Shown here: one piece after another, positions 16,125 through 18,724 of the stretch | How the letters are laid out: each line of letters opens with the position of its first letter | Position numbering within the stretch: the first letter of the stretch is position 1 | Origin: a virus | Length of the DNA stretch: 45,168 bases | UHGV virus genome: UHGV-0041136 | Strand: one strand, 5' to 3' | Notes under the pieces: generated by a model | Database searches by the model: none | Seen by the model: the letters and a program-made list of their open reading frames with translations, nothing else | Told to the model about the DNA's origin: nothing | Made by a program: the position numbers and the translations under genes

Positions 16125-16405
16125 CCCCAGAAGGCAAGATTCAGAAATACGCAAAAGAGCGATTCGAGGCCATTGGCGGCCTCGTTCGTAAACTTTCCTA
16201 CGAAGGACGTTCCGGCGCTCCTGACCTGCTGGTAATTCTCCCCGGCGGCATCGTCTGGTTCGTTGAGGTTAAGAAAGATGAAAACACGAAGCCCGACCCC
16301 CACCAGTTACGCGAGCACGAGCGGATGCGTAAAAGAGGTGCAAATGTTTTTGTCGTCGGTTCGTTTAAACAGGTTGACGACCTAATAGCGAACTATTATA
16401 GTTAG
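16121..16405 (+). CDS. VRR-NUC domain nuclease
   Basis: ATG 16121; GAPDLLVILPGGIVWFVEVKK...RGANVFVV matches the VRR-NUC pattern. Confidence 0.65.
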   Translation: MTPEGKIQKYAKERFEAIGGLVRKLSYEGRSGAPDLLVILPGGIVWFVEVKKDENTKPDPHQLREHERMRKRGANVFVVGSFKQVDDLIANYYS

Positions 16406-16435: not shown

Positions 16436-16627
16436 ATGAAACACGAATACGACCGCAAACCAGCACGTGACATCGTACCGGGCGACATGATTTTCAACGT
16501 TAAAACCCGACAGCCGGTTGCCGTTGATACGGTGTACGTCGAGTCGAACGGTAAACTGGTTATCGAAGACGTAACTGGAAACGTTACGGCGTTCGGGCGT
16601 AAAGAGTTAGTTCTGGTGCTGAAATGA
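16436..16627 (+). CDS. hypothetical protein
   Basis: ATG 16436 with AAGGA SD. Confidence 0.5.
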   Translation: MKHEYDRKPARDIVPGDMIFNVKTRQPVAVDTVYVESNGKLVIEDVTGNVTAFGRKELVLVLK

Positions 16628-17307
16628 TTGTCTGGTCATTGTTTGACGGTTCGGGCCTCATGGCCCAACCGTGGGCGGAAGCGGGCCATACGTGCTATTG
16701 TTTCAACTACGACGGTGCTGACCACGGCGACTACGCACGATTGGGTGCAAAAGTTGAACACGATAACATTCACTATATAAACGCGTGGATTGATAATAAG
16801 TTCGACTTCGAGGTTGCACCGGATATTATTTTCGCGTTCCCTCCGTGCACAGATTTAGCCGTTAGTGGCGCTGCGCATTTCGAAACGAAGCGGAGAAGGA
16901 ACCCAACGTTTCAGGTGGAGGCCGTGATTACATGCAAAGTGGCTGCGCGTCTGGCTAAAAAGTACAACGTACCCTATATGATTGAGAACCCTGTTAGCGT
17001 TCTCTCGTCTTTGTGGCGTAAGCCTGACTACGCGTTCAATCCATACGAATACGGCGGCTATTTACCCGAAGACGACACGCACCCAATGTTCCCCGAATAC
17101 ATAAAACCGCGGGACGCGTACCCTAAGAAGACATGTATTTGGGCGGGTAACGGTTTTGTGATGCCTGTTAAATCATGTGTCGCCGTGGTTGGCGGTTACT
17201 CTGACCAACACAATAAATTAGGCGGTAAATCGGTGAGGACAAAAACAATCCGCAGCCTTACCCCGCGGGGTTTCGCAAAAGCAGTTTATGAGGCCAATCA
17301 TGTCTAA
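16624..17307 (+). CDS. DNA (cytosine-5)-methyltransferase-like protein, unusually short (227 aa)
   Basis: motif I-like LFDGSG, motif IV-like FPPCTDLAVSG (Pro-Cys), motif VI-like MIENPV; no room for a canonical target-recognition domain. Confidence 0.5.
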   Translation: MIVWSLFDGSGLMAQPWAEAGHTCYCFNYDGADHGDYARLGAKVEHDNIHYINAWIDNKFDFEVAPDIIFAFPPCTDLAVSGAAHFETKRRRNPTFQVEAVITCKVAARLAKKYNVPYMIENPVSVLSSLWRKPDYAFNPYEYGGYLPEDDTHPMFPEYIKPRDAYPKKTCIWAGNGFVMPVKSCVAVVGGYSDQHNKLGGKSVRTKTIRSLTPRGFAKAVYEANHV

Positions 17308-18724
17308 GTTTCAAAGGCGCGAATACCAGAAGCTCATGACTTCGTTCATGTTGCGGCACCATCGCTGCAACATATGGGCAAGCATGGGCGCTGGGAAGAC
17401 TGGCAGCGTACTGTGGGCATTAAACCGACTGTTCCGCAACGGTCAACTTACGGACGACGACCGAGTGCTGATACTCGCCCCGTTACGTGTTGCATCTGGT
17501 ACGTGGCCCGCAGAACAAGAGAAGTGGCGGTTCCCTTGTCTGCGTGTCGTCGATGCTACCGGTTCAGAGAAGCGCCGTATCGCGGCGCTGGAGTCTGACG
17601 CTAACGTGGTATGCACTAACTACGAAGTTATCGAGTGGCTGATTGACTACTACGGCAAAGACGACTGGCCTTTTACCGTTATCGTTGCCGATGAAAGCAC
17701 GAAGCTTAAATCATTCCGCAGCCGTTCTGGCGGAAGCAAGCGTGCAAAAGCGCTTAGTAGAGTGGCGTTCGGAAAGGTTAAGCGTTTCATCAACCTGACG
17801 GGTACACCGTCGCCAAATGGCCTCAAGGACTTGTGGGGGCAGAACTGGTTTATCGACGCTGGCGAGCGCCTTGGTTCTTCATACACGGCATTCACAGACC
17901 GCTGGTTTAACTCGGTACAGAAAGGTAAGTCGGCGATGGCGCGTGAGTATCATGCACGCCCTGGCGCGGATAATGAGATCCACCAGAAGATGAAGGACAT
18001 TAGTCTCACGATTGACGCCGCTGAGTGGTTCGGCTGTGAAGCACCGATTATTGTACCGGTTGAAATCGACCTGCCGAAGAAAGCACGTCAGGCGTACATC
18101 GATATGGAGGAGAAGCTATTCGCGGAACTGGAGAGCGGAGAAGTTGAAGCGGCTAACGCCGCAGCGAAGACGTCGAAGTGTTTGCAGATTGCTTCCGGTG
18201 CCGTGTATGTTTCGGGGCCAGACGGCGAAGCAACGAAAGACTGGGAGAAAGTGCACGACACGAAACTGGATGCGCTGGAATCGATTGTTGAGGAGTTACA
18301 GGGTGCGCCATTACTGGTGGCCTATCAGTTCAAGCACGAACTTGAGCGCATCCTTAAGCGATTCCCGCAGGCACAGGCGTTTGCCAAAGGTGCGAAGGGT
18401 AATAAGCAGATGGAAGCGTGGAACCGTGGCGAAATCGAAATCCTATGCGTACATCCTGCGTCAGCCGGTCATGGTTTGAACTTACAGGATGGAGGACATC
18501 ATCTGGCGTTCATCTCGCAAGGCTGGAACCTTGAGCACTATTTGCAGGTCGTGGAGCGTATAGGGCCTGTACGCCAGAAACAGGCAGGCCACGAGCGCCC
18601 GGTGTTTCTTTACCATATAGTTGCTAAAGACACGCTGGACGAGGTTGTTGCCGCGCGTACCGACGAGAAGAAATCTGTACAGGAAGAGTTACTTAATTAC
18701 ATGAAGAGACGAGGTAAGAAATGA
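17288..18724 (+). CDS. SNF2-family helicase / ATPase
   Basis: Walker A GAGKTG, DEST box, LTGTPSPN motif; alternative ATG at 17300 has a better SD. Confidence 0.75.
   Translation: MRPIMSKFQRREYQKLMTSFMLRHHRCNIWASMGAGKTGSVLWALNRLFRNGQLTDDDRVLILAPLRVASGTWPAEQEKWRFPCLRVVDATGSEKRRIAALESDANVVCTNYEVIEWLIDYYGKDDWPFTVIVADESTKLKSFRSRSGGSKRAKALSRVAFGKVKRFINLTGTPSPNGLKDLWGQNWFIDAGERLGSSYTAFTDRWFNSVQKGKSAMAREYHARPGADNEIHQKMKDISLTIDAAEWFGCEAPIIVPVEIDLPKKARQAYIDMEEKLFAELESGEVEAANAAAKTSKCLQIASGAVYVSGPDGEATKDWEKVHDTKLDALESIVEELQGAPLLVAYQFKHELERILKRFPQAQAFAKGAKGNKQMEAWNRGEIEILCVHPASAGHGLNLQDGGHHLAFISQGWNLEHYLQVVERIGPVRQKQAGHERPVFLYHIVAKDTLDEVVAARTDEKKSVQEELLNYMKRRGKK

Follow-up and report, generated by a model that had tools for sequence, protein, structure and literature searches.

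The gene at positions 16624-17307 (+ strand) of the UHGV virus genome UHGV-0041136, a stretch of 45,168 nucleotides that is referred to below as the window (positions 1-45168), encodes a protein of 227 amino acids which we read, with a probability of about three in four, as a stand-alone S-adenosylmethionine (SAM)-dependent DNA cytosine-C5 methyltransferase of the short phage "Dcm-like" family (PHROG 757), one that most probably methylates replicating phage DNA and would choose its targets through a loop and an adjoining insertion. The open reading frame (ORF) was called with an ATG start by an ORF finder. An earlier note on this DNA had picked out three motifs in the product, LFDGSG (residues 6-11), FPPCTDLAVSG (residues 72-82) and ENPV (residues 121-124), and all three are present in the 227-residue translation. 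The same note had described the protein as far shorter than typical C5-methyltransferases and without space for a target-recognition domain (TRD), and both descriptions hold: the seven classical enzymes used here are 287-377 amino acids long, and the place of the TRD, which takes up about 75 residues in M.HhaI (from FQFPKP to the GG before motif IX), is occupied by 17 residues (182-198). The gene has already been deposited and annotated as near-identical copies, and the family to which it belongs is known and partly characterised; the variable loop and the mosaic cassette described below are new observations made here, and the residual interest of the protein lies in the specificity of an enzyme that has neither a TRD nor motif X and that carries a swappable, putative recognition cassette.

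Family membership and size

The protein matches the PHROG 757 profile ("DNA methyltransferase") with an E value of 4.2e-86, residues 1-226 being aligned to positions 15-219 of the 247 profile positions. A tblastn search matched 1,517 phage records, many of them annotated as DNA (cytosine) methyltransferase, whose hosts are Escherichia (576), Klebsiella (521), Salmonella (109), as well as Shigella, Vibrio, Campylobacter and others, and whose phage groups include Drexlerviridae, Dhillonvirus and Vequintavirus. A large protein database contains 7,178 homologues, the best 120 of which are 210-252 amino acids long, and a profile search of 1.84 billion cluster representatives returned 1,945 at an E value of 0.001 or better, with a median length of 234 amino acids among the best 150. 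Because the homologues fall into the same size class, the short length is a conserved property of the family and neither a truncation nor an annotation error. A PADLOC search of the protein gave nothing significant, and the same was true of sequence searches of the PDB with the single sequence and with a profile of its close homologues.

The family is present in more than 1,500 phage genomes, including those of therapeutic-candidate coliphages and of Klebsiella phages, and any prediction of how it acts on restriction escape and on defences that sense methylation hinges on the recognition sequence. In some cases a family member is part of a larger protein: P0250 (563 amino acids) joins it to a D12-class Dam adenine methylase, P0269 (348 amino acids) joins it to an HNH_2 endonuclease, and a relative lies within a helicase/UvrB-like protein of 1,397 amino acids (BFVD A0A6J5SE15).

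Motifs and fold

The family alignment consisted of 113 sequences, that is, the query and 112 representatives of 50%-identity clusters; a second alignment of 76 sequences has a mean column identity of 31%. The M.HhaI sequence used for comparison was verified to be identical to PDB 10mh_A. Alignment of the family to M.HhaI alone with hhalign was too weak (probabilities of 1.9% and 0.7%), and a profile of seven classical sequences from phage genomes was built instead. Against this profile the 113-sequence family aligned with an E value of 3.8e-4, and the motif alignment to M.HhaI that the earlier note had proposed as a check shows the order I-IV-VI-VII-VIII-"FxMP"-IX to be colinear with that of M.HhaI. 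The features of the protein are as follows.

16636..16656, + strand: motif I-like SAM loop SLFDGSG (residues 5-11) at the end of strand beta1, aligned by hhalign to M.HhaI DLFAGLGG
16690..16713, + strand: strand beta2 and motif II position, TCYCFNYD, with Asn28, placed by the family alignment
16837..16869, + strand: motif IV, FPPCTDLAVSG, with the predicted catalytic nucleophile Cys75, aligned by hhalign to M.HhaI GFPCQAFSISG
16975..16995, + strand: motif VI, YMIENPV (Glu121-Asn122-Pro123), strand beta5, aligned by hhalign to M.HhaI FMENV
17029..17061, + strand: motif VII-like YAFNPYEYGGY, strand beta6 and a short helix, with the invariant P140, aligned by hhalign to M.HhaI HAKVLNALDYG
17062..17118, + strand: family-specific ordered insertion LPEDDTHPMFPEYIKPRDA, 19 residues (147-165) between motifs VII and VIII, gapped against M.HhaI
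17119..17148, + strand: motif VIII-like YPKKTCIWAG, strand beta7, with Lys168/Lys169 for the classical R-x-R, placed by hhalign and by the match to K42 residues
17167..17217, + strand: variable loop VKSCVAVVGGYSDQHNK (residues 182-198) at the TRD position, between "F-x-M-P" (FVMP) and "LGGKS", placed by the family alignment
17248..17289, + strand: motif IX-like IRSLTPRGFAKAVY, followed by the C-terminal helix, TKTIRSLTPRG being aligned by hhalign with M.HhaI GKTRKLHPRE
17082..17243, + strand: mosaic patch comprising the end of the insertion, motif VIII and the variable loop, delimited by 30-nt window identity to Kagunavirus BCH953P1

The residues expected to take part in catalysis are among the best conserved, and the motifs did not arise by chance. 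Cys75 is found in 108 of the 113 aligned sequences, Glu121 and Pro123 in 111 each and Pro73 in 104; in the 76-sequence alignment C75, E121, P123, P140, Y166, W173 and P181 are invariant, while P73, N122, K168, T170 and R210 are kept at 90% or more. Motif I is reduced in the wider family to (F/Y/C)-D-x-x-G. By analogy with the classical enzymes, Cys75 of the motif IV PPC would attack C6 of a flipped-out cytosine, Glu121 of the motif VI ENP together with Lys168/Lys169 at the motif VIII position would hold the base, and a methyl group would be moved to C5 of the cytosine. The equivalence of Y-P-K-K-T to motif VIII comes from a low-confidence stretch of the hhalign alignment and from the superposition on DNMT3A made by the authors of the K42 study discussed below. 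The insertion LPEDDTHPMFPEYIKPRDA that precedes it is kept family-wide and is absent from classical enzymes; it is modelled mostly as coil at a predicted local distance difference test score (pLDDT) of 91-97. At the other end of the protein, the C-terminal 42 residues of the family, when aligned alone, match the motif IX block with an E value of 0.0027, a weak but specific match, and the chain ends 5 residues after the motif IX-like segment. The C-terminal "IRSLTPRGFAKAV" was considered as a motif X of the CmoX kind with Arg for Asn, and this candidate was rejected, the alignment of the segment being to motif IX rather than motif X. In M.HhaI, Asn304 of motif X adjoins the transferred group.

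The AlphaFold2 model, built with 29 homologues, has a mean pLDDT of 90.1 and a predicted template modelling score (pTM) of 0.88, and its fold is the C5-methyltransferase variant of the class I methyltransferase fold. In a Foldseek search with the model, DNMT3A and DNMT3B ranked first, their catalytic domains having 12-17% sequence identity to the window protein. DNMT3 proteins keep motif X and act as dimers or tetramers that share DNA recognition. The predicted structure clearly identifies the protein as a C5-methyltransferase, and the sequence does so only just. Compared with the classical C5-methyltransferases (M.HhaI, M.HaeIII, E. coli Dcm; PF00145), the window protein is about 100 residues shorter, and its small size has four causes: it lacks an N-terminal extension, its beta5-beta6 helix is reduced, its TRD has shrunk to a loop, and motif X and the C-terminal tail are missing. 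The classical enzymes have motif X and a motif VIII Arg; in the window protein the former was not detected, the latter is Lys, and the ordered 19-residue insertion before motif VIII is extra. As to orthology with the CCWGG-specific Dcm of E. coli, there is no NCBIfam match and no TRD-sized domain in the window protein, and the name "Dcm" given in the literature to the phage K42 enzyme is an analogy.

A variable loop within a mosaic cassette

In intact family members the stretch running from F-x-M-P to the end of LGGKS has a length of about 23-66 amino acids, 26 in the window protein; it is hypervariable, with unrelated sequences in different members. The block of lowest confidence in the model (residues 191-200, pLDDT 69) overlaps the variable loop. 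The TRD regions of classical enzymes vary in the same manner. Near-identical backbones carry two discrete loop forms, "GYSDQHNK" (the window protein and P0001-P0003) and "DNPGWAK" (P0004-P0037). Outside residues 154-207 the protein P0004 shares 96.5% identity with the window protein, and inside them 64.8%; for P0041 the respective values are 71.1% and 81.5%. At the nucleotide level, identity to Kagunavirus BCH953P1 in 30-nt windows is about 0.8-1.0 (mostly at least 0.9) from 16422 to about 17095, falls to 0.40-0.77 within 17082-17258 and is again at least 0.9 after about 17244. The patch is a recombination patch, in which the end of the insertion (EYIKP versus DVIPA), motif VIII and the loop co-vary.

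Target choice would lie in the variable loop (182-198) together with the adjoining insertion (147-165), which co-vary and pass between phages as one cassette of about 160 nt. We also put forward, as a tentative proposal that we regard as possible and still doubtful, that this is the smallest architecture of an autonomous DNA C5-methyltransferase without a folded TRD or motif X, that its specificity resides in a swappable cassette of about 50 residues (the end of the insertion, motif VIII and the 17-residue loop), and that the site specified by the GYSDQHNK allele is not that of the DNPGWAK allele found in the retron-triggering K42 enzyme but probably a shorter or more relaxed one, neither site needing to be CCWGG. 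If this proposal is true, the exchange of cassettes between genes that are otherwise 96% identical would be a route by which the methylation pattern is changed and, possibly, sensing of the retron Eco1 type is dodged. An active C5-methyltransferase of about 227 residues with a 17-residue loop would be a minimal scaffold for studying and engineering target recognition, for which the cassette polymorphism supplies natural chimeras.

The characterised homologue and retron Ec86/Eco1

The one experimentally studied member of the family is Dcm of phage K42, the trigger of retron Ec86/Eco1; K42 is a KarlJaspers-like phage of the Drexlerviridae whose "dcm" gene is 711 bp long (bioRxiv 10.1101/2023.08.16.553469; published as Wang et al., Cell Rep 2024;43:114857). 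It was shown in that study that all four of the four K42 escapers of retron Ec86 had lesions in or just upstream of dcm, that K42 Dcm expressed alone was toxic only when the retron was present, and that its expression alone raised the amount of 5-methylcytosine (5mC) in Ec86 multicopy single-stranded DNA (msDNA), as determined by liquid chromatography-mass spectrometry. The C82A/E128A/K175A/K176A mutant was inert, and Dcm was found to be encoded by 34 of 35 retron-sensitive phages. Defence was lost when the CC of the CCTGG in the msDNA was mutated (bioRxiv 10.1101/2023.08.16.553469), a result that many specificities could produce. MG1655, which served as the control strain, is dcm+, and CCTGG is present in the msDNA, yet the 5mC content of msDNA was low without the phage enzyme, which fits poorly with a phage enzyme that duplicates the specificity of the host Dcm.

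KarlJaspers is a Hanrivervirus, and the orthologue from Hanrivervirus pSf-1 stood in here for the K42-type sequence. It is 56% identical to the window protein and, after correction of an apparent frameshift in that record, about 236 amino acids long, with C82, E128 and FKKT at 174-177. In the record of pSf-1, a Shigella phage (KC710998.1; L009 2489-3200), the gene is annotated as a hypothetical protein of 216 amino acids, gp21, because the reading frame apparently shifts near codon 150; what is left of the protein (YLPEDD...RSLTPRGFARAVFEANAK) lies in another frame, owing either to a sequencing error or to a real pseudogene.

K42 Dcm and the window protein thus belong to the same family and size class (236 versus 227 amino acids), and C82, E128, K175 and K176 of the former correspond to C75, E121, K168 and K169 of the latter with the same spacing (+46, +47, +1). 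Both have Asn at the motif II position. The phages themselves belong to different groups, Drexlerviridae in the case of K42 and Guernseyvirinae in the case of the window phage, and the proteins differ in a patch of about 50 residues whose variable loop is of the other type: the Hanrivervirus (K42-type) enzyme reads "DIIPARD...DNPGWAK" and the window protein "EYIKPRD...GYSDQHNK". The two carry different cassettes, and therefore the characterised enzyme and the window protein are unlike in precisely the part that most probably encodes specificity.

The window methyltransferase is expressed from the replication module, where its gene stands between those of the VRR-NUC nuclease and the helicase, and it would most probably methylate replicating phage DNA together with host or retron DNA within its reach. 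Such methylation may help the phage to escape some restriction enzymes, and, by analogy with the homologue for which this was shown, it may leave the phage open to retron Ec86/Eco1, which responds when its msDNA becomes methylated.

Recognition sites in the genome

The window contains 94 CCWGG sites, an observed/expected ratio of 0.77, which says nothing decisive on specificity. GATC is strongly avoided (20 sites, where a Markov estimate predicts about 166; observed/expected 0.12) and CTAG is low (20 sites versus 66 expected), and several 6-bp palindromes are absent or rare: GGGCCC and GGTACC do not occur, CGTACG occurs once and CTGCAG twice. Scarcity of GATC, CTAG and the palindromes is what avoidance of restriction sites, Dam or MutH usually leaves behind. 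The counts show a phage that still relies on site avoidance, and they do not reveal the target of the methylase.

Points against the assignment and alternative explanations

Several observations weigh against the assignment of a DNA C5-methyltransferase that acts on phage DNA. In the HMM search by which the earlier note had proposed to check the family, the strong match to PHROG 757 is accompanied by a match to PF00145 that stays under the gathering score (16.3 bits versus a cut-off of 22, E value 0.0068, residues 3-102 only); only 3 of 76 family representatives reach an E value of 0.01 or better against PF00145, no NCBIfam model was matched even at E values of up to 10, and the diverse 76-sequence profile gave only sub-threshold matches to the N-terminal parts of DNMT2 and M.HaeIII in the PDB. 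In class I methyltransferases the ribose of the cofactor is bound by the last residue of beta2, and this motif II position is Asn, not acidic, in the enterobacterial-phage clade: the position of Asn28 (16703-16705) has Asp in 103 of the 113 family sequences and invariantly Asn in that clade, including the Hanrivervirus (K42-type) protein. Motif VIII carries Lys where classical enzymes have Arg, and no counterpart of motif X was found when the C-terminus was compared with the motif X block of the seven classical enzymes (score 4.8, 1 column). The enzyme that has been characterised, that of the K42 type, has the DNPGWAK cassette in place of the GYSDQHNK of the window protein, its activity was measured in vivo only, in a dcm+ strain and on msDNA, and its CCWGG site was carried over from host Dcm as an assumption (bioRxiv 10.1101/2023.08.16.553469). 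An anti-restriction benefit is weakened by the continued avoidance of many 6-bp palindromes in the window, and the BASEL study, in which C5-methyltransferases were abundant in Drexlerviridae, saw no simple pattern linking them to restriction resistance. The interpretation offered in the earlier note is partly supported: it is right at the level of the cytosine-5 methyltransferase family, and the anti-restriction role that it suggested is a putative one.

Four other explanations were considered. It is quite unlikely that the physiological substrate is RNA, as for a Dnmt2-like enzyme making m5C in tRNA, or a single-stranded or hairpin nucleic acid: the DNA enzymes DNMT3A/B, M.HhaI and M.HaeIII score higher, the gene lies within a DNA replication module, the homologue P0250 is fused to a DNA adenine methylase, and the modified base of msDNA was determined by comparison with a 5mC standard and assigned to the DNA stem-loop (bioRxiv 10.1101/2023.08.16.553469). 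The protein might instead belong, as a single subunit, to a split enzyme of the M.AquI type and receive its TRD and motif X from another phage protein, for example the product of the 63-residue ORF upstream or the helicase. The gene does overlap both the stop codon of that ORF and the helicase gene, a helicase gene adjoins in several phage groups, and in the BFVD relative the two are fused; we nevertheless find this explanation very improbable, since no neighbour is common to Kagunavirus, Dhillonvirus, Vequintavirus, Hanrivervirus, Webervirus and a Klebsiella prophage-like phage, homology among the adjacent helicases is confined to Kagunavirus and Dhillonvirus, and K42 Dcm alone, expressed from a plasmid, sufficed.

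The earlier note had also left room for a cytosine-modifying enzyme of another kind and for an inactive DNA-binding derivative, and neither idea fared well. A group other than methyl could be transferred, for example carboxymethyl from carboxy-S-adenosylmethionine (Cx-SAM) as by CmoX, or the enzyme could start a hypermodification pathway, and the structural resemblance to CmoX is the sole point in favour. CmoX, a phage DNA cytosine C5-carboxymethyltransferase (PDB 8yf3; PMC12783734; crystal chain of 333 amino acids), is defined by an SPPC motif, a motif X Arg350 that binds the carboxyl group and CmoA/CmoY partner genes. The window protein has FPPC instead of SPPC and no identifiable motif X, let alone its Arg, and no CmoA/CmoY-type genes are annotated in the 90%-identical phage hz69, so that such chemistry is highly unlikely here. 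That the protein is a catalytically dead, DNA-binding remnant of a methyltransferase might be supposed from its very short length, the absence of a detected motif X, the non-acidic motif II in its clade and the Pfam score under threshold. Inactive methyltransferase derivatives usually lose the catalytic Cys. In the family, at a mean column identity of 31%, Cys75, Glu121, Pro123, Tyr166 and Trp173 are invariant and Pro73, Asn122, Lys168 and Thr170 exceed 90%, and the phenotype of the K42 homologue needs the equivalent residues; this contradicts a dead remnant, which we consider extremely unlikely.

Gene neighbourhood

The methyltransferase gene is flanked by the following features.

16374..16402, + strand: sigma-70-like promoter consensus match TTGACG-17-TATAGT, 10/12, just upstream of the genes for the 63-residue ORF, the methylase and the helicase
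16436..16627, + strand: 63-residue ORF upstream of the methylase, its stop overlapping the methylase start (ATGA)
17288..18724, + strand: 478-residue helicase ORF, overlapping the 3' end of the methylase gene by 20 nt, annotated in relatives as "DNA helicase"

Coliphages of the Kagunavirus type (hz69, SZH-1 and several records that bear the name Kagunavirus) share about 90% identity with the 3-kb stretch around the methylase. In the annotated relatives of this type the gene is called "DNA cytosine methyltransferase" and stands after DNA polymerase I and the VRR-NUC nuclease and before the DNA helicase. The 63-residue ORF is hypothetical in the annotation of phage hz69, and a neighbour comparison across six phage groups found no homologue of it beside the methylase in the other groups. 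The helicase ORF is 67% identical to gp33 of Dhillonvirus HK578 (L011 580-2004). The methylases of HK578 and of the window are 63% identical and the gene order is inverted, HK578 having the helicase and then the methylase. The likeness between HK578 and the window indicates a segment of the replication module common to different phage genera.

In HK578 a Lar-like restriction alleviation protein and a second "DNA methyltransferase" of 161 amino acids are encoded near the short methylase (L011 140-313 and 3097-3582), and in Klebsiella phage ST11-VIM1phi8.1 a DNA methyltransferase of 218 amino acids adjoins it (L014 1324-1980). No counterparts of these additional anti-restriction or modification genes are annotated in the close relative hz69, in whose whole genome the methylase is the only annotated DNA-modification gene.

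The promoter-like sequence at 16374..16402 is the best sigma-70-like match between 13 and 19.5 kb and may serve the replication module as an internal promoter; it is a consensus match only, 9 such sites having been counted versus 5.5 +/- 2.3 in shuffled sequences.

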